A stretch of DNA of 64,000 bases from Oscillatoria sp. PCC 10802 (GTDB taxonomy: Bacteria; Cyanobacteriota; Cyanobacteriia; Cyanobacteriales; Oscillatoriaceae), in NCBI RefSeq assembly GCF_000332335.1, contig NZ_KB235948.1, positions 4,286,977-4,350,976 of the forward strand. The letters are read 5' to 3'. The translations under genes were made by a program, and so were the position numbers. The notes below the pieces were generated by a model. The model was given only the letters and a program-made list of their open reading frames with translations. It did not search any database and was not told the DNA's origin. This document shows, piece after piece, positions 15,114 through 61,133 of the stretch (the stretch's first letter is position 1; the number at the start of each line of letters is the position of its first letter).

Positions 15114-16192
15114 AAGTTATCCTCGGTGCAGACTCTTTGGTATTTTACATTCTAACAAATTCTCTCACAGGCGCGTGTGAGTGGAAATAGGCGCTGGGTA
15201 TCGGGTTGCTAAATGATGGGAACGCACCGGATTCCCCCTGGCGGCGTCCCCTGTCAAGCCCTTGCAGAAACTGCCGCCTATTTGATGCTTGCGCGTTCGG
15301 GATCTTTCGATTTTTACATCGCCGGCACAGGCGGGACGCCTGTTGCGGGACGCTCGCAAGGCACGCGACTGCTAGTTCGTGTAAATTTTCTCCCTTTTGG
15401 CCGGGACCCGCATTTTAGAATTGCGATCTCAGAACCGGCTCTTTAGGTGTTGAGTGAGTCAAACACTGAGAGCGCCAGCGCTCCCTCGAAGCCTCTTGGC
15501 GTGCGGTCTTTCTCACCCCCTCACCCCCTGCCTAAAGCCAGTTTTAATGCTTGCTCCTGCAACAGGTTACCGAAAATTCGGGATGACTCACGCTCCTGAC
15601 GCTCGCGTGTTTTGCCGATTCCACCGGCACAGCAATCTGGCCTTTCTATCCCCGCAACTGTGGGTGTTTCCCGCCCGACAAATCAAGTCAGTTGTGGGAA
15701 TTCCTCGGGGAGTTTAAGGGGTTGAAATTGCGCCTCCCTCACAGGCGCTTGCAGGAACACACTGATGCCGGCGCTGCCCCGAATTCGTTGGGCGCAAGCC
15801 TTATCTTCCAGAATACTTGACCGCTCAGGGGTGGCGCGATTGCCGGTGGCGATTGCCCAAAGCGCGGTGTGCCAGTGAGAGCGTTAACTAGCGCGCGCCG
15901 GTCAGCGATTAAACACTAGCTGAATTATGCGGGTTTCTCTGCCTGGAAAGACCGGTTTCTGGGATTGTCCCGAGCGGTCCTGTAGCGTGAAAGTGTCTCA
16001 GGTTGAATGCCAGACCGAAAAGCGCCGGTGGGAATCCTCACCGTTTGTCGCCCCACCGGCAATCGGGCGCTGATCTCATTTTTTCTGAACTGATCGTCAT
16101 ATCCCTCTTCTGTCACGTTGGGGCAATTTGACGAATTTGCGCTATTTCAGGGAACGACAGATCCGGCTTTCACCCTTGTTTGACAAAAGAGG

Positions 16193-16701: not shown

Positions 16702-16809
16702 CTATAGCAGCAGTCATATTGGGAACGGAGATCAGTGGCCTAGGGATAAGAGGCGTAGGACAGGCGTCCCGCCTGTCCTACTGTCCCGGTCTAAATAAAT
16801 ACTGCTATA
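16702..16809. repeat. MITE-like repeat family A, short copy with GTAGGACAGGCGTCCCGCCTGTCCTAC hairpin
   Basis: CTATAGCAGCAGTCATATTGGGAAC ... GCGTAGGACAGGCGTCCCGCCTGTCCTACTG ... AAATACTGCTATAA. Confidence 0.7.
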
Positions 16810-34837: not shown

Positions 34838-34925
34838 TCCGACGCAGGACAGGCGGGACGCCTGTCCTCCCGCCTGTCCGGTGCACAGGCGGGTGCGCAG
34901 GCGGGTGCGCAGGCGAGACGCCTGT
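34838..34925. repeat. GTAGGACAGGCGGGACGCCTGTCC palindrome plus 3x CAGGCGGGTGCG tandem
   Basis: gacgcaggacaggcgggacgcctgtcctcccgcctgtccggtgcacaggcgggtgcgcaggcgggtgcgcaggcgagacgcctgttgc. The same palindrome core occurs at 16755, 44645 and 52983. Confidence 0.6.
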
Positions 34926-36098: not shown

Positions 36099-36420
36099 TC
36101 CCCTGGCAATTAGCTAGGTTCCAGGCGATTGGAAATCGCGGCTATACAAACGAAGCCCGCCTTCGCGGGCTAAGAGTATATTGAGACTCTCAAAATCTGC
36201 GCGGTTTTCCTCGTTGCGCAGTTTTCCTTGTTCCTTCGTCCCCTGGCAATTAGCTAGGTTCCAGGCGATTGGAAATCGCGGCTATACAAACGAAGCCCGC
36301 CTTCGCGGGCTAAGAGTATATTGAGACTCTCAAAATCTGCGCGGTTTTCCTCGTTGCGCAGTTTTCCTTGTTCCTTCGTCCCCTGGCAATTAGCTAGGTT
36401 CCTGGTGATTGGAAAGAGAC
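36099..36420. repeat. Tandem direct repeat, 140-bp period x2.3, made of MITE family B units (GATTGGAAATCGCGGCTATACAAACGAAGCCCGCCTTCGCGGGCTAAGAG)
   Basis: CCCTGGCAATTAGCTAGGTTCCAGGCGATTGGAAATCGCGGCTATACAAACGAAGCCCGCC... recurs at 36101, 36241 and 36381. Copies 1 and 2 are identical. Confidence 0.85.
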
Positions 36421-36761: not shown

Positions 36762-39125
36762 TCATGCAAACCACCGGCGAATTAACTCCACCTGGAAGCG
36801 GAAACCGTCACCGGCATGTTCAATGAGTTCGCGGCGCAAAAGCAGGTTGAGGGTGCTGTCGAGGCTGTCGGGTTCCTCGCGGGAGAGAAATTGCCGGCTG
36901 GCTGTTGCGCGTTCCCCCTGTGCGGCGATGCAGCGCAATACGGCTAGCCCACCGGCATCTATTTGGTTGCGTTCGATGTCGGAGAAAAAGAAACTGCCAC
37001 TTTCTAAAGCACGCGGCACTGCAGCTTCTATATCGGCTAAGGTGGCAAACCGGCGCACTGAGGGATCTTGCTCGTTTTTGAGAATGACAATCTCGTTGCA
37101 GAGGAGTTGCACCAAAAAGGGGTGATGGCGGGTTAAATCTAGAATTCGCTGCACCGCATCGGGTTCATAGCGCAGGGTAAAATCTTTGATGGGGCGCTCT
37201 ATCAGCTGACGCGCTTCCGGTTCTCTCAGGTAGCTGATATGCACGACTTGCACGTTGATCAGGTAGCTCGCCCAGCGCTGAAATTCCTCTATCGTGTGGG
37301 AGCCGGCGAGCAGCACTTTGAAGCGGGGGCGGTGCTGGATTAAGTGGCGCAGCATTCCCAAAATTCGCTCTTCATCAAAGCGTCCTTTCCTGATGGCGCT
37401 GTCTAAAGCCTCGAATTCATCCAAGGCAAGCAGGGCGGTATTTTGTTCGAGTGTATTTTCGACTTCATCTAACCATTCGTCGAAGCCGGTGAAGGGATCT
37501 GCTGCTAGGGTTTCGCGGGGGAGGGGCGGCAGATTCAATTCGCTCTGTCGCTTGGCTGAGTTTATCATGCCTCTAGCGAGGTTGTAGAGAAAACCTGCCG
37601 GGTCACTCGCCTGTGATGCCGGTCCTTGCAAGTCCACAAACATGGGGATGATGCTGTTGGGGAGGAGGCGTCCGAGGTTGTTGAGAAGGGAGGTTTTGCC
37701 CATGCGCCGCTGACCGTAGAGTAGCAGAGGGGGGCGACGCCGGTCTAGCAGTAATTGCTCGATGCGCTTGCCAATCTCAGTGCCGCTGATATCAGCGGGT
37801 TTGACAAAGATTTCCTGCTGCTCATTCAGGGGGATGCCAGTGATGTAGGGGTTGTCAATCTCTTGGCGGAGTTCAGCTTCTTTTGCCAGTTCGGACACAC
37901 GCTCGGCAAGAATTTGATGCCAGCGGAGGGCGATGGGCTGAAACCGAACCGCGTATTTGTTGCTGCTGCGGGTTAAGTACCGCAACTGAGCTTCTAAACG
38001 GTCTGCAACAGCGCTGAGCGCTAGACGCTTGTTATAAGCACTTTCCTGATTGAGAGCAGCGTCTGCATCCTCGCTGATGCGACTGAAGATGCGGATCACT
38101 GCGCCGGCTGGGCTTTGCAGTTCGCTAATAACCAGACTGCGGTGAGCATTACGGATGGCTTCCACATCCGCACAGTTTTCTAAACTCCGTGCGTCCAGTT
38201 CAATTTGTGCCGCCTGTGCCGCCCAGCGCTGCCGGCTGGTACTCAGATATTCGATGGCAGCTTTTCCCTCAGCTGGGTTGCGCTCCATCACTAAAAGGAG
38301 ATGCTTGTCCAAGTCATATAGGGGAATGCGCTGCCACTCATCCCAAAAGGCAGAATGCCAGCGCAACAGACTGGGTTGAGTGCCTGTTCGTTTTTTGTCC
38401 AGTTGATACAGGAGGATATTCCATACGGTCAGGAAGGGATAGAGTACCGCTGGTAGCCACAAGTTTACAGTTACTCCCACGCCCGACGCCACGCCGAACG
38501 CCACGCCCCACGCCACGCCCGACGCCACGCCCAACGCCACGCCCAACGCCACGCCCAACGCCACGCCCCACGCCACGCCCCACGCCACGCCCCACGCCAC
38601 GCCCCACGCCACGCCCCACGCCACGCCCAACGCCACGCCCGACGCCACGGCCCACGCCACGGCGAACGCCACGCCCGACGCCACGGCCCACGCCACGGCG
38701 AACGCCACGCCGAACGCCACGCCGAACGCCACGCCCCACGCCACGCCCCACGCCACGGCCCACGCCACGCCGAACGCCACGCCCCACGCCACGCCGAACG
38801 CCACGGCCCACGCCACGACACGAAAAATTTTGTCAGCTGGCTCGCCCAACCCCCACAGCACCAATCCGAGAAGCAAGTTAGCCAGGACAGGGGAGAGCAG
38901 GTATCCTTGGAGCCGCAGCCGCCACAGAGCGAAGTTCCGCCAGCGCCCCTGTCTAATCAATAAAATCAGAGAGGAGTTAGGCTTCAAATCGGGGTCAATC
39001 CTGGTTATGTGATTGCGGAAAGCTGTGGGGCGGAAAAAAACCCAGAACATCAGTTGCAGCGTGCCCAGAATTAGGTTGGGGTGCTGCTCGGGTGCGTTGG
39101 TGTAGGCGTTGCGCGGGACGTTCAT
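36762..39125 (-). CDS. Membrane glycine-zipper tetrapeptide-repeat protein fused to C-terminal P-loop AAA+/STAND-like ATPase (novel architecture)
   Basis: 787 aa. Domain order:
- N-terminal conserved domain [39 protein letters not shown], shared with the paralog at 40861..42357.
- Hydrophobic helix [19 protein letters not shown].
- About 29 uninterrupted [G-V-A-(W/F/L/S)] repeats (aa ~141-259; about 35 units when flanking degenerate ones are counted).
- Conserved middle domain [67 protein letters not shown].
- ATPase with Walker [19 protein letters not shown] and Walker [12 protein letters not shown]. Confidence 0.8.
38476..38818. repeat. 12-bp tandem repeat (GCCACGCCCCAC / GCCACGCCGAAC variants), about 29 units, inside the CDS
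   Basis: Runs of identical consecutive units, for example cacgccccacgc at 38560-38620. On the minus strand it encodes [12 protein letters not shown]. Confidence 0.95.
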
Positions 39126-40860: not shown

Positions 40861-42357
40861 CTACAGGGGGCGCTGTGTGTCCGGTAGCATGTGGGGGCTA
40901 CCGGCTTGTTGGTCAATTTTTGCCGCCAATTCGCGCACACAACCGGCTACAATCTCATACCAGCGAAGAGCAATCGGGTAAAAACGAAGGGCGTCTTTAT
41001 CGCCGCAGGCGGTTAACTCCCGCAAGAAGTTATCCAGATTCTGCGCGACAGCGCTGAGGGCTAGCAGCCGATTAAAGGCACTCTCCTGACTCACACCGGC
41101 ATCTACTTCTTGGCTAATCTGGCTAAAGCTGATCAGCCAAACACCGGCAGGGCTTTCTGAATCACCGGCACCCAAGTTTTGGTGTGCGTTACTGATATCT
41201 CGCACGCCCCCACAATTTTCTAAACTCCTGGCGTCTATTTCAATCTGCGCTGCCTGCGCCGCCCAGCGCTGCCGGCTGGATTTCAGGTAGTTAATTGCGG
41301 CTTTTGCTTCATCGGGATTGCGGTCCAGTATCAAAATCAGGTGTTTGTCTAATTTGGGGAAAGGCAAAAACTGCCACTCATGCCAGAATGCGGAGTGCCG
41401 GTGCAGCAAACTGAATTGACTCCCGGCAAATCGTTTATCCAGTTGATAGAGGAAGATATTCCATACTGTTAATAAAGGATAAAATACTACCGGCAGCCAA
41501 TAGTTGACAGACACTCCCAGCGCGAACGCCACGCCCGAAGATACCCCCGACGACAGGCCAAATGCTAAGCCCAAGGTGACAATCGACGCCAAGCGCCACC
41601 CGACGCGCCACGCGATGTCGGGCGAGACGCCGGGAACTGCGCCCGACACCACGCCCAAGGTGACGCCCAAGGTGAAGCCGGACATCACGCCCAACACCAC
41701 GCCCAAGGCAAGACCGGATGTCAAGCCCGACACCACGCCGGATGACATGTGAAACGCCACGCCCAACCCAACGCCAAACACGACGCCCAACCCGACGCCC
41801 CACCCCACACTCCGCCTGGCGCTGAACCCCGGACTCAAGGTGACGCCCAGGACTGCGCCCGACGCCGCGCCCAACCCGACGCCCCACCCGACGCCCCACG
41901 CGAACCCCAAGGCCAAGTTGAGGGCCACGCCCCACGCCATAGCTAACCCGACGCCCAAGGTGACGGCTAGGGCCACGCCTGAGGCCACGCCCCACTGCAC
42001 GCCCGACGCCACCCACGATGTCAGCCCCCACCACACGCCGGACGCCACGCGCCAGAAAATGATTTCTTTTGATTGGCCGAGTGCGGACAGTATTAAACCC
42101 AGGATTGAAAATGCCAGGAAAGGTAATATTAAATATTCCTGGATTAGCAGTCGCCACAAAGCCCAGTTGCGCCACCGCAAACGGGTGCCCTGTTGCCGAT
42201 TTGGGTCTAAGGCGGGGTCAATGCGGGTGAGGTGGTTGCGCCATGCTGAGGGGCGGAAAAAAAGCCAGAACAGCAGTTGCAAACTGCCCAGAATAATGTT
42301 AGGATGTTGTTCGGGGGCATCTGTGTATGTGCTGGGTGGAATAGTGGGAGAGGTCAT
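40861..42357 (-). CDS. Paralog of Gly-zipper repeat membrane protein, lacking the ATPase domain
   Basis: Start taken at the ATG at 42357 (MTSPTIPPSTYTDAPEQHPNIILGSLQLLFWLFFRP, which aligns with the N-terminus of 36762..39125). Degenerate GVxxGVxx glycine-zipper region of about 190 aa. Middle domain shared almost motif for motif (YWLPVVFYPLLTVWNIFLYQLDKR...[37 protein letters not shown]). Ends before any Walker motifs. The upstream 126 nt of the track ORF lie in a MITE and are rejected. Confidence 0.7.
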   Translation of the reverse strand: MTSPTIPPSTYTDAPEQHPNIILGSLQLLFWLFFRPSAWRNHLTRIDPALDPNRQQGTRLRWRNWALWRLLIQEYLILPFLAFSILGLILSALGQSKEIIFWRVASGVWWGLTSWVASGVQWGVASGVALAVTLGVGLAMAWGVALNLALGFAWGVGWGVGLGAASGAVLGVTLSPGFSARRSVGWGVGLGVVFGVGLGVAFHMSSGVVSGLTSGLALGVVLGVMSGFTLGVTLGVVSGAVPGVSPDIAWRVGWRLASIVTLGLAFGLSSGVSSGVAFALGVSVNYWLPVVFYPLLTVWNIFLYQLDKRFAGSQFSLLHRHSAFWHEWQFLPFPKLDKHLILILDRNPDEAKAAINYLKSSRQRWAAQAAQIEIDARSLENCGGVRDISNAHQNLGAGDSESPAGVWLISFSQISQEVDAGVSQESAFNRLLALSAVAQNLDNFLRELTACGDKDALRFYPIALRWYEIVAGCVRELAAKIDQQAGSPHMLPDTQRPL

Positions 42358-42460
42358 GGATGCTTCTGGTTGATTCACCTTAATAATGAACCGCCAAGAC
42401 GCGCCAGCGGTTTCCCGTAGGGTAAATGCCAAGTACGCCAAGTTTTGCCTGGTTCCGGGC

Positions 42461-42692
42461 GATTGGAAATCGCAGCTATACAAACGAAGTCCGCCTGCGC
42501 GGACTAAGAGATTTTGCTAAGTTCCAGGCGAATGGAATTCGCGGTTCCAGGCGAATGGAATTCGCGGCTATACAAACCAAGTCCGCCTACCCAACGGGCA
42601 CGGGCTTCGCCCAACGCGGACTAAGAAAAGAGGGAAATTCTTGAAACCCGCGCAGGCGGGTTTCGTCTGTATAGTTGCGGTTTCAACCGCCG
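42461..42692. repeat. MITE family B composite copy (direct 30-bp duplication plus inverted terminus)
   Basis: GGTTCCGGGCGATTGGAAATCGCAGCTATACAAACGAAGTCCGCCTGCGCGGACTAAGAG...GTTCCAGGCGAATGGAATTCGCG x2 ... CGCAGGCGGGTTTCGTCTGTATAGTTGCGGTTTCAACCGCC. It flanks the 5' side of the Gly-zipper paralog. Confidence 0.8.
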
Positions 42693-42707: not shown

Positions 42708-44567
42708 CTAAGCGCTGACAAAGGAAACGGCGACGCGAAATCCGAAGCGGTTATTCCGGATTTCTGGCACAACCCTGCAGCGGAAAGCGGAACGGCAATC
42801 CCTGGGGTTGCTGAACCAAGAACCCCCGCGCAGCAACCGGCGATTTTGATTGCCACCGGCATCCCAAACACCCCCATCCGCTAGCGCACCGGCATAATTA
42901 TCATGCCACGGATCGGCGCACCACTCCCAGACATTCCCGTGGGTGTCGTACAAACCAAAAGTGTTGGCTGGAAAACTCCCCACATCTGCTGTCTGTTTGC
43001 TATAGGTTCCTTTGGGTTCAGAAGCGTAAGTATAGTTGCCGTGATAATTAGCTATTTCAGTTGTAACTGTCTCGCCAAAGTGGAAGGGCGCAGTGCGGGT
43101 GTCCTCGCCGGCAGACGCACGACAGGCATATTCCCACTCAGCTTCGCTGGGTAAGCGGTAGTTGCGCCCGGTTACTTGGGAGAGTCGCGCACAAAATTCG
43201 ACAGCATCGTACCAGGATACATTCTCCACCGGCCTGTTTGCGCCTTTGAAATAAGACGGATCGGGATTTAAATCCAGGTACACCTTGGGTAGGGCTGCGA
43301 CAGCTTTCCACTGCGCCTGTGTTACGGCATATTTCCCCATAAAAAAGGGCTGCACTTTTACCAGGTGCTGCGGGCTTTCTTCATTATATCGCCCTGACTC
43401 AGTTTTTGGGGAACCCATCAGGAAAGTTCCCCCTGGAATCGACACCATTTCCAAGGGCACCCCACTGCCAGCGTCTTGGGCAAAGTATTCCGCTTGCCGG
43501 CGCGTGCGGCTGATTTCTCGCCCGTAAGTGTCTACGGTAATAGCGTCGAAGGCAAACTGCTGCAAGGGTGTTTTGCCTGAGGGGGGAGAGGTGCTAACCG
43601 AAAGGGGAACTCCCGACGTTAGCAATCCAATCCCGGCAAAACCGGCAGCTTTAAAAAGTTGCCGGCGTGTCGGGGAATCCTCTTTTATCAGGGAGGAAAC
43701 CGCTTGCAGCGCTTCCACTGCTGACGGGTAGCGCCGGCGGGAGTCACGGCGCACCATTGTGTCTAAAATCTTGGCCAGCTGGGGGCTAACTCGCACTTTG
43801 TTGCGCCAGATAATGTCACCCGTCTGGGGATTTTCTGGCAGTCGCCGGGGAAAGATGCCGGTGAGTGCTTGAATTGCTGTCATTCCCAGAGCGTACACAT
43901 CGCTGCTAAACTGGGGGTTGCCCTTCGCTTGCTCATTTGGCATGTATCCGGGGGTGCCAATCCCAACTGTTAAATTCGCCTGAGTTGGCGCACTCACCAC
44001 TTGGGTGCAGACTTGCTTAATTGCGGCAAAGTCTATCAAGACAATTTTACCATCTTGGCGGCGTCGGATTAAGTTTGCCGGTTTGATATCGCGGTGGATC
44101 GCACCCTCCTGATGCGCGTGAGAGAGGACTGTCAGCACATCCAGCAAAAAGGCAATCACCCGTTCTTCCGTCCACCGGCATCCCGGTTTGATTTCCGCGC
44201 ACAAGTCCTCGCCTTCTATAAAGTCTCGCACGAGATAGAACTCTTGATTCTCCTCGAAGTGAGCTAGGACTCGGGGAATTTGGTCGTGTTCGCCCAATTT
44301 GTGGAGGAGTTTAGCTTCCGTGTCAAATAGGGTTCTGGCAATCTCCAACGCGGACAGATTGTTGGACAGGGGTTTGAGCTGTTTGACGGCGCAGGTAGGA
44401 CTATCTGGCAACTGGGTGTCAGAGGCGAGGAAAGTTGACCCAAATCCCCCGCCTCCCAAGTGTTTGACGATCTTATATCGCCCCGCAATGGTTGTTCCCA
44501 ACATGTGTTTCATGCAGTTCAATGGCAAGTTTCGCTCTAGGATACAGCCTTTGCGCACAAATGTCAA
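42708..44567 (-). CDS. Ser/Thr protein kinase fused to C-terminal formylglycine-generating-enzyme (FGE/sulfatase-modifying factor) domain
   Basis: 619 aa. Kinase subdomains GGGGFGSTFLA, VKQL, HRDIKPANLI, DFAAIK, GTPGYMPNEQ. C-terminal FGE fold (YAVTQAQWKAV...NVSWYDAVEFCARLS...RLPSEAEWEYACRA...RGGSWFSNPRDCRSAFR). Confidence 0.85.
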   Translation of the reverse strand: MTFVRKGCILERNLPLNCMKHMLGTTIAGRYKIVKHLGGGGFGSTFLASDTQLPDSPTCAVKQLKPLSNNLSALEIARTLFDTEAKLLHKLGEHDQIPRVLAHFEENQEFYLVRDFIEGEDLCAEIKPGCRWTEERVIAFLLDVLTVLSHAHQEGAIHRDIKPANLIRRRQDGKIVLIDFAAIKQVCTQVVSAPTQANLTVGIGTPGYMPNEQAKGNPQFSSDVYALGMTAIQALTGIFPRRLPENPQTGDIIWRNKVRVSPQLAKILDTMVRRDSRRRYPSAVEALQAVSSLIKEDSPTRRQLFKAAGFAGIGLLTSGVPLSVSTSPPSGKTPLQQFAFDAITVDTYGREISRTRRQAEYFAQDAGSGVPLEMVSIPGGTFLMGSPKTESGRYNEESPQHLVKVQPFFMGKYAVTQAQWKAVAALPKVYLDLNPDPSYFKGANRPVENVSWYDAVEFCARLSQVTGRNYRLPSEAEWEYACRASAGEDTRTAPFHFGETVTTEIANYHGNYTYASEPKGTYSKQTADVGSFPANTFGLYDTHGNVWEWCADPWHDNYAGALADGGVWDAGGNQNRRLLRGGSWFSNPRDCRSAFRCRVVPEIRNNRFGFRVAVSFVSA

Positions 44568-44730
44568 TCACCTTTTTTGCCAAAGTTTTCACCCTCACCC
44601 CCTACCTCTCTCTCCCTACTTCGGATAGGGGGTTCTTGGGTTAAGACGTAGGACAGGCGTCTCGCCTGTCCCTATCCTTGCTAACAAGTGAGATGCCTTG
44701 TCTGGGAAGGTGTCCCCTCCCGCAATAAAT

Positions 44731-46386
44731 CTACCGGCTCTCAATGCTCAAATCCACATCTGCCGGTGTAAAATATAACTGGGCGCTGCCCTCACTCAAG
44801 GCGGCAATGGCATCCTGTTTCCGCAAAGTATTAAAAATCGCCAGCTTCTCCGATGCTGGCATGCCATTCCCCAACCCGTCAAAGAACGCCCTGACGCGAA
44901 TTGCCTCCGCCTCACCGGCAGTTACCGCCTCGGTTTGCGCGTGCTGCCGGCGCAAGTCCAGCAGCTGTCCCTTCAGCCGCTCAACTTCAATCTCCCCCTC
45001 TATCTCCTTAAGTTTAACATCATTATCGCCCTCCTGTTTCTGCAGCCGGTTCAGCCGGTTTGTCGTCTCCTGGATAATCTCTAGCAAAATCCGCTGCGTG
45101 TCCGGATCTTTGCAAGCGACTGAGCGCACTTCCACCGCATGAAGCGCCACCCCACGCTCGGCATAAAAGCTGTCCTCCACGCCCAGCACCGCCTGTCTGA
45201 CTATGGCATTAAACCCCGCCAGAAATCTTTCCAGCGATACCTGCGATACGGACTGAATAATCAGGCTGCGAGCGTGGGCGCAAATCGCGCCGGTGGTATC
45301 ATCTGTCGCCTGAATCATGGCAGCTACATCCACAATCTGCCAGAAAAACGTCAAGCCGATAATCAATTCTACATTATCCTGCGTTCGCGCTTCAAACTCG
45401 TACCACATGAATTTGGGTCGCCCGTCAATGTGGGTGAAGATGAGGTTTTTCTCGTTTTTGTGCAGCCCGCTGGCCCACCGGAATTCCACCAGCTCCTCAT
45501 ACGGCTGCAAAAAGAAAGACCGTTCATCACCTGTTCCCCGTTTTATGCTATAATCTCCAAAGCGGTCTTTGACGACGACCGTTTCGTGATTCTCCAGCAA
45601 AATGCGCTGGCGCACTTCTACGATTTCTTGATTCGCCTCCGGACAGAAAACCTGCGTCTCTGTTATCAATCGTAGCGTGCCAGTTTGCGTGTCCCGCACC
45701 AGGACTGCAGTGTGTTCGTCAATATTGACCCCTTCCCCGATGCTGCTTAAAATATCTTCGATAATCTCTTCCGCAGGAGTCAGGTAGAAACTCCTCTCGC
45801 CGCGCTCCACGCGAATCATGCCGGTGCTTTTATCAATCACCTTGACATACTGATTTTGCTGCAGTAAAATAGGAGTGCGGAGTTCGACAATTTCCTGATT
45901 GGCAGCTGGAATGAACACTTGGGGGTCGGAAATCAGCTGCAGTTGGCCGGTGGAAATATCTCGCACCAGCACCGCTGTTCCCTCATCAATATTGACACCC
46001 TCCCGCACCGGCTCTAGAATCTGTTCAGTGGGGTTGAGACAGACACTGCGATCTCCTCTTTCCACCCGAATCGCGCCGGTGCGCTTGTCAATTAGCCGGA
46101 TGTACTGGTTGCTTTTCAGGGGGATGGCGGAAAGCTGTTCCAGGATTTCCTCACTCGCCGCCGGGAAGTACAGCTTGGGGCCAAATTCGTTGCGCAACTC
46201 GCCGGTGAGGGTGTCGCGCAGGCGCAGGTATTCGGTTGGCCCAAGGGTTTTGGCCTTGCGGCGCTGCACCCGCCACCAGGGCTGGGAGTAAAACACAGCG
46301 GGCCCATTCACTGTCCACCGGCGCGTGAAGCCCTCGACGAGCAGCTGTTCGTCTTCTTTGAGATAATATATCCAGGGCAAAAACAT
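44731..46386 (-). CDS. Major vault protein (MVP) homolog: MVP repeats, band-7-like shoulder and cap-helix
   Basis: 551 aa. At least 5 MVP repeats of about 45 aa (YIRLIDKRTGAIRVERGDRSVCLNPTEQILE, VKVIDKSTGMIRVERGERSFYLTPAEEIIEDI, KRGTGDERSFFLQPYEELVE; compare eukaryotic MVP KGEKSFFLQPGEQLE). Shoulder region GAICAHARSLIIQSVSQVSLERFLAGFNAIVRQAVLG (compare [37 protein letters not shown]). Then a coiled-coil cap-helix. Confidence 0.8.
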   Translation of the reverse strand: MFLPWIYYLKEDEQLLVEGFTRRWTVNGPAVFYSQPWWRVQRRKAKTLGPTEYLRLRDTLTGELRNEFGPKLYFPAASEEILEQLSAIPLKSNQYIRLIDKRTGAIRVERGDRSVCLNPTEQILEPVREGVNIDEGTAVLVRDISTGQLQLISDPQVFIPAANQEIVELRTPILLQQNQYVKVIDKSTGMIRVERGERSFYLTPAEEIIEDILSSIGEGVNIDEHTAVLVRDTQTGTLRLITETQVFCPEANQEIVEVRQRILLENHETVVVKDRFGDYSIKRGTGDERSFFLQPYEELVEFRWASGLHKNEKNLIFTHIDGRPKFMWYEFEARTQDNVELIIGLTFFWQIVDVAAMIQATDDTTGAICAHARSLIIQSVSQVSLERFLAGFNAIVRQAVLGVEDSFYAERGVALHAVEVRSVACKDPDTQRILLEIIQETTNRLNRLQKQEGDNDVKLKEIEGEIEVERLKGQLLDLRRQHAQTEAVTAGEAEAIRVRAFFDGLGNGMPASEKLAIFNTLRKQDAIAALSEGSAQLYFTPADVDLSIESR

Positions 46387-48088: not shown

Positions 48089-49132
48089 TTAGGGCAAACG
48101 CTGGCACAGCAGCAAGCCAACCCACCGCTGCGGGTCAGTCCAAACGCGCACCGGCACTAAACCTCGCCCTTGCAGGTACTCCCGCATCTCATCCAAATCG
48201 AACTTGCGCGAAATTTCTGTTAGAATCGTCTCACCGGCCCCCAACTCAACACTTAAATCCAGAGCGCGTAAGCGAACGTTTTGCGCTCGCAAACTCCGCA
48301 AGTGCATCTCAATTTGGCGCTGACCTTCATTATAAAACGCCCAGTGTTCAAATTGAGACGGATCGAAATTTCCCTCAAAACGCCAGTTCAGGTGGCGCAG
48401 CATATTCAGATTGAACTCAGCCGTCACCCCTTGAGCGTCACTATACGCCGGTTCCAGCACCTCCTTTGATTTGTGCAAGTCAATCCCCAGCAGGAAAAAA
48501 TCACCCGCCTGCAGAGCGCCCGCAATTTGCGATAAAAACACATCGCACTCCTGGCGCTTCAGATTCCCCAAACTGCTGCCGATAAAACAAATCATCCGCG
48601 CCTTCAGGGGCGAAGGTGCCAGTTTTGACAGCGCCAGCTCGTAAGTGCTCACCAACCCGTGAACCTCCAGCTGCGGGTAATCCGCCAGCAGTGCGCGGGC
48701 GCTGCTTTCCAGGATGCCGGCACTGACATCAATTGGCAGATAGCGCAGCCGGTAGCCCAACTCGCTGTAAGCATCCAGAAGAATGCGAGTTTTCGTCGAA
48801 CTCCCACTCCCCAGTTCCGCGATTTCGCACTCGCCGGTCAGTTCGGCAATCTCGCCGGCACACCCGCGCAAAATCGCCGCCTCCGTGCGCGTCACATAAT
48901 ATTCCGGCAGCTCGCAAATCCGCTCGAACAGCATCGAGCCCCGATCGTCGTAAAAATAGCGCGGCGGCAGAGATTTCGGACTCTCACTCAGCCCGCTGAC
49001 AATATCGCTGCCAAGAGTCAATTCTGTTTCCAAAAGCGCAGTCGGGGTGAGCAGATGCTCTATGCGCAAACGTTCCTCAGTGGTTCCCGGTTTGCGAATA
49101 CCGGTAGAAGTTAAATTGTTTGGCGATTGCAT
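48089..49132 (-). CDS. egtD: L-histidine N-alpha-methyltransferase (ergothioneine biosynthesis)
   Basis: 347 aa. PKSLPPRYFYDDRGSMLFERICELPEYYVTRTE and ELGSGSSTKTRILL are EgtD signatures. Confidence 0.88.
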   Translation of the reverse strand: MQSPNNLTSTGIRKPGTTEERLRIEHLLTPTALLETELTLGSDIVSGLSESPKSLPPRYFYDDRGSMLFERICELPEYYVTRTEAAILRGCAGEIAELTGECEIAELGSGSSTKTRILLDAYSELGYRLRYLPIDVSAGILESSARALLADYPQLEVHGLVSTYELALSKLAPSPLKARMICFIGSSLGNLKRQECDVFLSQIAGALQAGDFFLLGIDLHKSKEVLEPAYSDAQGVTAEFNLNMLRHLNWRFEGNFDPSQFEHWAFYNEGQRQIEMHLRSLRAQNVRLRALDLSVELGAGETILTEISRKFDLDEMREYLQGRGLVPVRVWTDPQRWVGLLLCQRLP

Positions 49133-49242
49133 GATAATTCTGCTAGACGCACCAGCGGCTAAACAACACAGCCTTTCCCGTCACCCTCACAAGCGCGATT
49201 TTCCAGGCTGCTCTATTCTCCCACACCGCAGTAGGGATTCTA

Positions 49243-49279
49243 CAGAAACCCGGTTTCTTTAACAAACCGGGTTTCTTGG
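49243..49279 (-). terminator. AGAAACCCGGTTTCTTTAACAAACCGGGTTTCT hairpin downstream of egtB
   Basis: Inverted repeat 9 nt 3' of the egtB stop at 49288, between egtB and egtD. Confidence 0.45.
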
Positions 49280-49287
49280 CACTCCTC

Positions 49288-50613
49288 CTACCTAGCGCAG
49301 CGAAAACCGACAAAAAGCTGCCTCACCCAAGGGTGATACCAGTTGCGGAAGCTGCCTCGCAGCGCCCTGGGGCGAGTCGCCCAGCTCCCCCCTTTGAGAA
49401 CCCGGTGCTGCCGGTCAAAATACACCTGGGAATAACCGGCATAGGGGTAGAACTCAAACCCCTGATAGCCCTCAAACCAGCTGGATGTCCACTCCCAGAC
49501 ATTCCCCAGAGCGTCGCACACGCCCCAAAAGCTCGCCCCTGCGGGGAAAGCACCGGCAGGCGTCGTCTGAGCGTACAGATTGTCGTGATTGCACCGGCTG
49601 GCGTCGGGAGGATCTTCCCCCCAGGGGTAGGTGCGCCGGCATCGAGCACTCGCATCCCAGCAGACGGCTTTTTCCCACTCCGCCTCGCTGGGCAACCGCT
49701 TGCCGGCAAACCGCGCAAAGGCATCCGCTTCATACCAGCTCACCCCGCACACGGGATGGCTGTCAAAACACGAGTCACCCGACCAATATAAAGGCTGCCT
49801 GACCGAATTCTTTTGCACCCACTCCCAGCCCTCGCTTGACCAAAAGCTGGAATTGTGATATCCTCCCGCCTCGATAAATTGCCGGTACTGCCCGCAAGTT
49901 ACAGGATAGCGGTCAATCCAGTAGGTGTCCAAATAGAGCCGGTGAGCCGGTCGCTCATTATCAAAAGCGTCGGTGGAGTCAGAACCCCGCTCAAATTCCC
50001 CAGCAGGAATTTCAATCATTTCAGCTAGGGCACCGGGCGCTAGGCATGGGGCATCGGGTGCGAGCACTCTCCCCTGTTGCGGAGAAATCCCCTGCCAGCC
50101 GACTAGCCTGGTCAGGAATGTTACCGTTTCGCAGTGCTGGCTTTCGTGCTGGACAATAAAGCTCCAGAGGCGCTGTTGCTCCCCCACCGGCGCGATTTCC
50201 AGATAGTCCAGCACTTTTGAGCGCACCGTGTCCAGATAGTGGCGCAGCTCACCTAGCGAAGGCAGGTACACCCGTTCCGCTTTCGGCAAACCATTCGCTG
50301 GGAACAGCCTGTGATATTCTGGAAACACCGGCGGATAGCCGGCGGTGCGCTGCAGCAGCCACAGCGCTTCGGTGTAGGCGATGTGCCCCAAATGCCAGCC
50401 AGGGGGGCTGAAGTCGGGATGGGCTTGCTGGCTGAAGGTGGCGCGATCCATACCTTCAAACAGTTTTAGGGTGGCGGTGCGGCACTCCTGCAAGGCGTTG
50501 CGAATGGCGTCTCTAGAGTTGATAGATTTGGATTTCAAGGTTCTCTCCCACACTGATAATACTCTGTTCTGGGCAGCGATTCCAGCTGCCGGCGAACAAA
50601 GGTTCAGAAGCAA
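49288..50613 (-). CDS. egtB: Hercynine oxygenase / sulfoxide synthase EgtB (DinB-like N-domain plus FGE-like C-domain)
   Basis: 441 aa. DinB_2 region (ECRTATLKLFEGMDRATFSQQAHPDFSPPGWHLGHIAYTEALWLL, His triad). FGE-sulfatase fold (GDSCFDSHPVCGVSWYEADAFARFAGKRLPSEAEWEKA...KGGSWATRPRALRGSFRNW). The first ~100 nt of the track ORF overlap egtC, so the true start is probably an internal GTG/TTG near 50540. Confidence 0.85.
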   Translation of the reverse strand: MLLNLCSPAAGIAAQNRVLSVWERTLKSKSINSRDAIRNALQECRTATLKLFEGMDRATFSQQAHPDFSPPGWHLGHIAYTEALWLLQRTAGYPPVFPEYHRLFPANGLPKAERVYLPSLGELRHYLDTVRSKVLDYLEIAPVGEQQRLWSFIVQHESQHCETVTFLTRLVGWQGISPQQGRVLAPDAPCLAPGALAEMIEIPAGEFERGSDSTDAFDNERPAHRLYLDTYWIDRYPVTCGQYRQFIEAGGYHNSSFWSSEGWEWVQKNSVRQPLYWSGDSCFDSHPVCGVSWYEADAFARFAGKRLPSEAEWEKAVCWDASARCRRTYPWGEDPPDASRCNHDNLYAQTTPAGAFPAGASFWGVCDALGNVWEWTSSWFEGYQGFEFYPYAGYSQVYFDRQHRVLKGGSWATRPRALRGSFRNWYHPWVRQLFVGFRCAR

Positions 50614-51295
50614 TAATCACCGCATTCGGGAACGTTGGGTCGTCTCGCAGCCAGTATAGAGAAGGCACCGCCGCCCCAGTGGCAAACCGGCTGGCAGCCA
50701 GCGTCTGTCCGTCACTGAGGAGCAGGTTTGCTGAGACGCTGGTTTGATGGGAGGTTGCCAATTCTCCCAAGACGGCTAGCCCCGAGCGCAAAGCATTTTC
50801 TAGAGTGCCTTGGCTCGCCAATTCCTCAGTCAGCAAGGCAAAAATGTGCTCCGAATCGGTCGTGCCGTCAATCCCCTGGTAGGCTGTGTCGCTGAGGCGA
50901 TCTCGAATTGGCCGGTAAAGGCTGGAGCGGAAGTTTTGAATGAAGCCGTTGTGAGTGCCTAAAATCTTGCCGTGGCGAAAGGGCTGGCAGTTGCTCAAAT
51001 CTACGGCTTGTCCGGAGGTGGCGCTGCGGACATTCGCCAGCACGCACCCTGACTCAATGTACCGGCTCAATTGGGGAAGGTTAATATCGCTCCAGATGGG
51101 CAGGGTGTTTTTGTAGGTAAAAGGATCTGTGTCTCGCTGCGGGTGATACCAGCCTATGCCAAAGCCATCGGCGTTGAGCAAGCCGGCTGTCATTTCCCGG
51201 GGTTGGTAACTTTGGGCAATCAGGGAGTGTTTGGGTTTGTACAGGAGATAGTCCAGCAGGATAGGCGGGCCAAGGTAGCCAAGTAAGCGGCACAT
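50513..51295 (-). CDS. egtC: Class-II glutamine amidotransferase EgtC (gamma-glutamyl-hercynylcysteine sulfoxide hydrolase)
   Basis: 260 aa. N-terminal MCRLLGYLG with catalytic Cys2. GFGIGWY and HNGFIQNF motifs of Ntn-type GATase. Confidence 0.8.
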   Translation of the reverse strand: MCRLLGYLGPPILLDYLLYKPKHSLIAQSYQPREMTAGLLNADGFGIGWYHPQRDTDPFTYKNTLPIWSDINLPQLSRYIESGCVLANVRSATSGQAVDLSNCQPFRHGKILGTHNGFIQNFRSSLYRPIRDRLSDTAYQGIDGTTDSEHIFALLTEELASQGTLENALRSGLAVLGELATSHQTSVSANLLLSDGQTLAASRFATGAAVPSLYWLRDDPTFPNAVIIASEPLFAGSWNRCPEQSIISVGENLEIQIYQL

Positions 51296-52960: not shown

Positions 52961-53023
52961 ATTGATATTTTACAAACGATTGTAGGGGACAGGCGGGACG
53001 CCTGTCCTACGTCTAGAAAAGCT

Positions 53024-60991: not shown

Positions 60992-61133
60992 TTCCGGGCG
61001 ATTAGCTACTTTTCGGGCGATTGGAAATCGCGGCTATACAAACAAAGTCCGCCTGCGCGGACTTAAGAGAAGAGCGGCAGCGTAAAACCCCTTGTCTTGC
61101 CGGTTTTATCTGTATAGCTGGGGTTTCAATCGC
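60992..61133. repeat. MITE family B copy
   Basis: TTTCCGGGCGATTAGCTACTTTTCGGGCGATTGGAAATCGCGGCTATACAAACAAAGTCCGCCTGCGCGGACTTAAGAG ... CCGGTTTTATCTGTATAGCTGGGGTTTCAATCGC (inverted terminus). Confidence 0.8.

Follow-up and report, generated by a model that had tools for sequence, protein, structure and literature searches.

The gene at positions 44731-46386 (minus strand) of a 64,000-nucleotide stretch of DNA from the filamentous cyanobacterium Oscillatoria sp. PCC 10802 (Oscillatoriales) encodes a genuine, shortened bacterial major vault protein (MVP) homolog. Below, the whole stretch is called the window. Four independent lines of evidence lead to this conclusion. We consider it probable that the protein is a stand-alone, soluble member of a conserved bacterial and protist clade of MVP-like proteins in the SPFH superfamily, and that it self-assembles into a cup.

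The gene had been described before, in a prediction made from the letters of the window, as a bacterial MVP homolog. The open reading frame (ORF) was present exactly as given there, with an ATG start and 551 codons, and its product is identical to WP_017718324.1, a hypothetical protein listed for Kamptonema formosum / Oscillatoria sp. PCC 10802. The annotated ATG is right, because the N-terminus MFLPWIYYLKEDEQ agrees with the family consensus MxIPWIYFLKEDEQ and most of the close homologs start 1-3 residues ahead of the conserved proline.

Homology to MVP, family and repeat modules

Similarity to MVP had been predicted in the repeats, in the shoulder and in the cap helix; it proved to be real in all three regions and far beyond chance. 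Pfam Vault_3 (32.6 bits, cut-off 28.8) and MVP_shoulder (PF11978; 29.6 bits, cut-off 25) were both matched, and the generic Band_7 family scored just under its cut-off (23.2 against 23.6 bits). A sequence search of the PDB with the protein alone found MVP chains only (E 2e-9), and the same was true when a profile of 60 family sequences was used (MVP only, E 1e-18). No other SPFH protein was returned by these searches at E <= 0.01. Positions 61-427 of the profile aligned with residues 353-749 of rat MVP, which comprise the last repeats, the shoulder and the cap helix.

The AlphaFold2 (AF2) monomer model (mean pLDDT 83.6) consists of seven small beta domains, the alpha/beta shoulder (residues 319-425), a 77-residue helix, a second helix and a tail. 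The first of the two helices is the equivalent of the cap helix; it is continuous from residue 428 to 504 and could be aligned with rat MVP up to approximately residue 749. When the model was compared with known structures by Foldseek, the top 12 matches were full-length MVP chains (E 1e-26 to 5e-22), and the best SPFH cage protein followed at E 2.7e-10. Taking Vault_3, MVP_shoulder, the PDB matches and Foldseek together, the assignment to MVP was borne out: the repeats did not fall into an unrelated beta fold, and the C-terminal part was more than generic SPFH.

Conservation was highest in the C-terminal tail (0.81), followed by the shoulder (0.79) and the cap helix (0.74). Despite its top conservation the tail had low pLDDT in the monomer model, and it may be an element that closes the apex and folds only in the oligomer.

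The window protein has the architecture of the clade, i.e. an M-x-[IL]-P-W-x-Y-F start, R1 plus a variable number of double repeats, a shoulder with the motif WxxGxHK...DxRPKFMWY, and a C-terminal module of ~125 amino acids. It is 55-68% identical to 57 family members from several phyla and 93-95% identical to two close relatives. A search of 1.84 billion cluster representatives with a hidden Markov model (HMM) yielded 1,313 matches at E <= 1e-3, 728 at E <= 1e-10 and 292 at E <= 1e-30. In the NCBI annotation clade members of the type of A9AUD4 carry the label 'SPFH domain-containing protein'.

When one genome of each GTDB species was scanned by pattern, 74 loci were located, mainly in Chloroflexota (many carriers, among them Herpetosiphon, Oscillochloris, Anaerolineae and Thermoflexales), Riflebacteria/Ozemobacter and Cyanobacteria/Sericytochromatia (Oscillatoria, Leptolyngbya, Allocoleopsis, Hormoscilla and others). 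Some loci were in Cloacimonadota, and few in other groups, including single genomes of Elusimicrobia and Muiribacteriota; none of the 74 was archaeal. The prediction that such homologs occur mostly in cyanobacteria was thus wrong for this clade, which is dominated by three phyla and extends to protists.

Strong eukaryotic matches came from dinoflagellates and a euglenid: Polarella glacialis (P0127), Symbiodinium natans (P0181), Gymnodinium smaydae (P0153), Ploeotia vitrea (P0124, 41% identical); others came from MMETSP protists (P0135 and P0248). P0124, P0141, P0153 and P0181 were 32-41% identical to the window protein. The protist members have 7-14 repeats and most of them, P0124 excepted, have a transmembrane (TM)-like, often Cys-rich segment directly ahead of R1. 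Among relatives with an N-terminal extension a hydrophobic anchor was located immediately before R1 in 24 of 32; all anchored relatives with a named source are eukaryotic. A membrane-anchored MVP-like form was not found in the vault literature searched. In two relatives the MVP-like unit was joined to large extra regions, of ~980 amino acids on the N-terminal side in P0216 (1525 aa, metagenome) and of ~2760 amino acids on the C-terminal side in P0181 (3381 aa), the latter of which may be a merged gene model.

Comparison of the protein with itself and the use of a module HMM showed that the repeat region is composed of R1 and three double-repeat modules of ~85 amino acids, thus of seven repeats in total. 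This number, which agrees with the seven small beta domains of the AF2 model, replaces the five to six repeats of the original prediction. The protein is, as had been stated, shorter than eukaryotic MVP, and with seven repeats and 551 amino acids it does not reach the canonical size of nine repeats and ~850-900 amino acids. In module 3 the segment ERSFFLQPYEEL aligned opposite EKSFFLQPGERL of rat MVP.

The number of modules was determined with the module HMM in 121 proteins (the query and its 120 closest relatives). Two modules, corresponding to five repeats and ~462 amino acids, were found in 93 proteins and three in 23. Five proteins went beyond three: P0001, P0006 and P0026 have four (the middle modules of P0026 scored as half-length matches), P0037 has ~3.5 and P0010 approximately five. 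In the window gene module 2 is merely 52-54% identical to modules 1 and 3; its extra module is accordingly old. A different picture was obtained with P0001, a nine-repeat protein encoded at 8001-9899 of L075, a JGI/ENA metagenome contig. Its identity to the window protein is 85%, and its gene belongs to the same block of synteny. The two modules in the middle of P0001 agree in 96% of amino acids and 95% of nucleotides, which indicates a very recent in-frame tandem duplication of ~255 bp.

In the best 150 of the HMM search matches the repeat number covered an unbroken range from ~5 to ~14, and all of them, whatever their repeat number, had the ~125-aa C-terminal module in common. These counts are approximate for distant relatives, where they were taken from the distance between R1 and the shoulder (a single-module HMM undercounted). 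Bacterial and metagenomic relatives had 5, 7, 9 and ~11 repeats.

The motif that is most conserved in the family (residues 304-349) reads W304xxG307xHK310...L315...D321xR323PKFM327WY329...R334T335xD337N338V339...T346xF348W349. G307, K310, R323, D337 and W349 are invariant, and P324, K325 and F326 nearly so. Human MVP binds NAD+/ADP-ribose between adjacent shoulders, in a pocket formed by a basic 'keyhole loop' (R504, K506, R507, P508, H509, R511) together with D521, F522 and W545 (PMC12280208; bioRxiv 10.64898/2026.05.01.722283). In the profile alignment the motif lies opposite this loop and pocket, with the human/window pairs G503/G307, K506/K310, P520/P324, F522/F326, D533/D337 and W545/W349; all six positions are invariant or nearly invariant across the 60 profile sequences. 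The motif also contains conserved basic residues of the family's own (H309, R/K313, R323 and K325). The conserved basic motif suggests a putative site for a small anionic ligand between neighbouring shoulders.

A hydropathy scan detected no TM-like segment in the window protein; the peak 19-residue hydropathy, 1.72, fell within beta strands of the shoulder. Neither this protein nor any of its 120 closest homologs had an N-terminal membrane anchor in the form of a TM segment, hairpin or lipidation motif, and in none of the 120 was there a hydrophobic stretch in the first 70 amino acids. The protein is acidic overall, with R1 as its sole basic domain; the family means are +3.2 for the charge of R1 and -17.6 for the rest of the protein.

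Predicted assembly and its alternatives

Self-assembly into a cup is the most likely function, because all solved proteins retrieved in which an SPFH domain is followed by a long helix were part of a ring or a cage, the same elements are conserved here, and the tail is disordered in the monomer. Elements of the shoulder, tail and cap-helix type hold MVP and SPFH cages together (PMC12624060). By analogy, subunits of the window protein would pack side by side through these three elements into a ring-shaped cup, the wall of which would be the repeat stack, with a height set by the number of double-repeat modules. The cap helix of rat MVP is ~155 residues long; taking into account that the equivalent helix has 77 residues here, the cup would, as a rough estimate, be narrower than the 39-mer half-vault.

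Several points weigh against cup formation or against parts of this picture. Assembly, subunit number and closure are deduced purely from homology, and the models are of the monomer only. The cap helix is half as long as that of MVP, and the C-terminal tail is without a demonstrated MVP equivalent. In the ligand pocket the human residues R504, R507, H509, R511 and D521 are replaced in the family, and the residue equivalences are tentative since the pairwise alignment is one residue off the profile alignment in this region. Finally, the bacterial forms may not share the anchored topology, because the named anchored relatives are eukaryotic and, where measured, 32-41% identical.

The dependence on homology and the short cap helix would also suit a protein that has the MVP-like fold but remains a monomer or a small oligomer, for example an elongated adaptor, and does not build a cage; the multimer model of a five-repeat Asgard homologue, which was of low confidence (ipTM 0.525; PMC12962969), can be cited in the same sense. 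We hold this to be rather improbable: the retrieved structures with an SPFH domain and a long helix were all in rings or cages, and conservation is strongest in the assembly elements and in the tail that is disordered in the monomer. If a cup is formed, docking of its R1 rim to a membrane would be slightly favoured over the joining of two cups. A single dome, resting on the plasma or thylakoid membrane by its basic, aromatic R1 rim and fencing a patch in the manner of flotillin, stomatin or HflK/C, only with a taller wall, is a possibility to be taken seriously, if short of an even chance. R1 alone among the domains is basic, and aromatic residues abound at its N-terminus; membrane association is seen in every other SPFH cage with a known structure (PMC12624060); and in the anchored relatives (the named ones being from Polarella, Symbiodinium, Gymnodinium and MMETSP protists) the TM-like segment directly before R1 would place the rim at the membrane. 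On the other hand, the window protein and its 120 closest homologs have no anchor (see above), AF2 places residues 6-9 as a strand inside R1 so that no free amphipathic segment is left, and neither NfeD, FtsH nor another membrane-protein partner was among the 25 commonest Pfam families of the 112 immediate neighbours (from ~73 loci). Somewhat more doubtful is a closed mini-vault, in which R1-R1 contacts would hold two cups together at their rims and cargo would be enclosed, as in the eukaryotic vault, in a sealed nanocompartment of the cytoplasm. Such a particle would fit a soluble, anchor-free protein whose closest relative in structure and sequence is MVP and whose N-terminal P-W-x-Y-F-L-K-E-D, conserved to the residue, resembles the start of R1 in rat MVP (IPPYHYIHVLDQN); lateral 'docking' in silico was reported for the relative A9AUD4 (Daly et al. 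2013; PMC3762200). Pairing of R1 is, however, impossible for the relatives with a TM anchor immediately ahead of it, identical R1 domains that are basic throughout would repel one another if no acidic patches offset the charge, and the vault is apparently exceptional among the studied SPFH complexes in being completely enclosed without membrane association (PMC12624060). Moreover, no homolog of a vault cargo is located nearby, and a vault-like or Y-like RNA was not found in the window.

The original prediction also saw a hint of a functional pair with the adjacent Ser/Thr kinase-FGE fusion gene. The MVP-like protein would then be a substrate, scaffold or cargo shell of a co-expressed kinase, which would be in line with the reported role of eukaryotic MVP as a scaffold in kinase signalling (summarised in bioRxiv 10.1101/872010). 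The two genes are co-directional and adjacent in the window, in L001 (Oscillatoria princeps, 93% identical MVP-like protein) and in L075 (85% identical). Comparison with other genomes did not support the pair. The three loci to which the adjacency is confined represent one syntenic block of closely related Oscillatoriales, extending from egtCBD to the kinase, and the kinase is absent from the other cyanobacterial loci examined (L003-L007, L021 and L072) and from all other phyla. Only 2 of the 112 immediate neighbours had a Pkinase and 3 an FGE domain. The genes are, in addition, separated by ~220 bp containing a dispersed hairpin and a promoter-like match upstream of the kinase start (see below). 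Functional coupling is therefore very unlikely, and we regard the kinase-FGE gene as a syntenic neighbour only, not as part of the system. The most far-reaching version of the preferred cup reading holds that these are genuine bacterial vault-like cups, that their wall height is tuned on short evolutionary scales by ~85-aa modules, and that the basic pocket between shoulders is the ancestral counterpart of the human NAD+/ADP-ribose site. Taken as a whole, this version is unlikely.

Genomic surroundings

The MVP-like gene lies in ordinary chromosomal surroundings. Upstream of it are egtD, egtB, egtC and the genes for a thylakoid photosystem I accumulation factor, chlM and nagA. On its downstream side lie the kinase-FGE gene and genes for STAND-like NTPases. 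The coordinates of the MVP-like gene, its parts and the downstream elements are collected in Table 1.

Table 1. Coordinates in the window of the MVP-like gene, the segments of its product and the elements downstream of it
Feature	Position	Strand	Description
MVP-like gene	44731..46386	minus	ATG start; 551 aa, 62.7 kDa, pI ~5.05
Repeat R1	46237..46386	minus	aa 1-50; start M-x-[IL]-P-W-x-Y-F conserved to the residue; net charge +4; open rim of the predicted cup
Double-repeat module 1 (R2-R3)	45979..46236	minus	aa 51-136; Pfam Vault_3 match at aa 91-123
Double-repeat module 2 (R4-R5)	45712..45978	minus	aa 137-225; absent from the common 462-aa five-repeat forms
Double-repeat module 3 (R6-R7)	45433..45711	minus	aa 226-318; weak Vault_2 match
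Most conserved motif of the family	45340..45477	minus	aa 304-349
Shoulder	45109..45432	minus	aa 319-426; SPFH-like alpha/beta domain; Pfam MVP_shoulder above gathering cut-off
Cap-helix equivalent	44875..45108	minus	aa 427-504; single 77-residue helix
Loop, second helix, C-terminal tail and stop	44731..44874	minus	second helix aa 511-532; tail AQLYFTPADVDLSIE, aa 533-551
GC-rich palindromic hairpin	44651..44671		GGACAGGCG-NNN-CGCCTGTCC; ~60 nt past the stop codon of the MVP-like gene
Ser/Thr kinase-FGE fusion gene	42708..44567	minus	Pkinase E 1e-30; FGE-sulfatase E 7e-58

That the kinase-FGE gene is co-directional with the MVP-like gene was predicted correctly, whereas the gap of 163 bp given for the pair applies to the longest ORF, which begins with TTG. 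This TTG is the first half of a TTGACA hexamer resembling a -35 box; together with TATCCT 17 nucleotides later it forms a sigma-70-like promoter match (44567-44539, 10 of 12 positions) just upstream of the likely kinase start. By comparison with orthologues the true start is probably the ATG at 44504 or 44513, which makes the gap ~217-226 bp; in the syntenic locus L075 it is 225 bp. The kinase-FGE gene thus probably has its own promoter.

The intergenic region between the two genes folds stably (z = -3.4). The palindrome located here was considered as a gene-specific terminator; this was rejected when it turned out to be a dispersed repeat, with exact 21-nt copies at 16758-16778, 34847-34867, 44651-44671 and 52987-53007 (four copies, 0.01 expected by chance) and variants at 15325 and 26737. 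The sequence around two copies was examined (44651 and 52987), and both are intergenic, just past the end of a gene. The palindrome may be a repetitive extragenic palindrome (REP)-like terminator or stabiliser hairpin, serving transcript termination or stabilisation. The dispersed hairpin and the promoter-like match weakly favour separate transcription of the MVP-like and the kinase genes. The window contains a second dispersed repeat, GTTCCAGGCGATTGGAAATCGCG, with a GCGATT...AATCGC hairpin, in six copies (36099-36415, 42452-42566, 61010-61032); two of them are in a 98% identical tandem duplication of 140 bp (36099-36415) and two form a perfect 23-bp tandem pair (42521-42566).

No neighbour was conserved family-wide in the 74 genomes, whether sequence clusters or Pfam domains were compared. 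What these comparisons did reveal was synteny restricted to single lineages, for example that of genes for a beta-CASP RNase and a pseudouridine synthase in Riflebacteria. Like NfeD and FtsH, STAND was missing from the 25 Pfam families that occur most often in the immediate neighbours. TROVE, PARP and vWA-type neighbours were not enriched among the 112, and no Rfam family, including vault RNA and Y RNA, reached the threshold in the 64-kb window; neither search extended to the remainder of the genome. The MVP-like protein had no match in PADLOC or PHROGs, and the viral BFVD library yielded as matches giant-virus and phage SPFH proteins only and nothing named MVP; for these reasons a defence-system role and a phage origin were dropped. 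The kinase domain of the neighbouring protein (residues 27-293) matched PD-T4-6 of PADLOC (E 1e-95), which was not accepted as evidence for defence because the match covers the generic Ser/Thr kinase domain only.

The cluster just upstream of the MVP-like gene is a complete one for ergothioneine biosynthesis; it extends over 48089-51295 (minus strand) and consists of egtD (48089-49132), egtB (49288-50613) and egtC (50513-51295). All three reached the NCBIfam equivalog cut-offs, egtB barely (360.3 against 360). The ORFs of egtB and egtC overlap by ~100 bp, presumably as a result of longest-ORF calling. Further downstream, in the ORF 36762-39125 (minus strand) encoding a 787-aa protein, a 12-bp unit occurs ~28 times (38477-38817) and encodes a hydrophobic (G-V-A-W/F)n array in the N-terminal half; the C-terminal half is a STAND/AAA-type NTPase. 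The neighbouring 540-aa ORF (40861-42483, minus strand) has a related N-terminus with a degenerate version of this array.

Comparison with known systems

In the searchable literature no experimental report of a native vault-like particle from bacteria was found, in agreement with what had been stated in the original prediction. The novelty implied there was overstated: A9AUD4 was listed as having the MVP fold in 2013 (PMC3762200), and a 2026 paper described prokaryotic MVPs with five repeats (PMC12962969). The existence of such bacterial homologs was thus already known, and the window gene is one more member of an uncharacterised family. The points that are new are comparative ones; they concern module dynamics, the finding that no partner is conserved, the protist relatives with an anchor, the basic character of R1 and the conservation of the pocket motif. 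Even ~40 years on, what vaults do and how they arose is not settled, and a small, single-gene bacterial relative without obligatory partners is a convenient handle for asking if cups or cages were formed before there were eukaryotes, if particle height follows from repeat number and if the nucleotide pocket of human vaults is ancestral. If tunable cups and an ancestral pocket were true, these bacteria would be a tractable system for the original function of the vault.

With eukaryotic MVP (rat and human; PDB 4V60, 6BP7 and 9BW5) the window protein shares the order of beta repeats, SPFH-like shoulder and long cap helix, the soluble, anchor-free state, the motif ERSFFLQP / EKSFFLQP and, apparently, several of the residues framing the NAD+ pocket. 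It differs in that it is ~18% identical, has seven repeats of ~43 instead of nine of ~55 amino acids, a cap helix of half the length, and a family-specific C-terminal tail in place of the cap ring. Counterparts of TEP1, PARP4 and vault RNA are not present near the gene. Eukaryotic MVP forms particles of 78 subunits (2 x 39), whereas the window protein is known from its sequence and a monomer model.

Among the prokaryotic proteins, the 'band 7 protein' A9AUD4 of Herpetosiphon aurantiacus belongs to the same family. It is 60% identical over 439 amino acids and has the same N-terminal motif, shoulder, helix and tail; with five repeats and 462 amino acids it is shorter than the window protein by one double-repeat module. 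Daly et al. 2013 (PMC3762200) included it among proteins that fold and dock like MVP, and they also noted short sequences of ~530 amino acids in Naegleria and Chlamydomonas. Five-repeat MVP homologues of Asgard archaea, for which closed cups were proposed from low-confidence multimer models (Nat Microbiol 2026; PMC12962969), are, as far as can be compared by description, likewise short prokaryotic MVP-like proteins with a cap helix, a shoulder and fewer repeats, but their source is archaeal and not bacterial. Full-length MVPs of bacteria and phages (Moorea/Lyngbya F4Y3B4, Oscillatoria acuminata, Saprospira, Microscilla, myxobacteria and gut phages) measure ~810-880 amino acids, and the cyanobacterial ones are reported to be more than 50% identical to eukaryotic MVP, probably as a result of horizontal transfer (PMC3762200; bioRxiv 10.1101/872010 and 10.1101/2023.11.10.566534). 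They share the MVP architecture and are known in silico only; the window protein, far less similar to eukaryotic MVP, belongs to a separate and more divergent clade.

The classical SPFH cages (HflK/C, QmcA, stomatin, prohibitin, erlin and flotillin) have an SPFH domain, a wall helix and a C-terminal closing element, an order resembled by the SPFH-like shoulder, cap helix and tail of the window protein, and they have N-terminal anchoring in common with protist members of its family. These cages have no wall of beta repeats, are anchored in the membrane and are often paired with NfeD or FtsH. Unlike them, the window protein is anchor-free, and its shoulder passes the cut-off of MVP_shoulder and remains just below that of Band_7.

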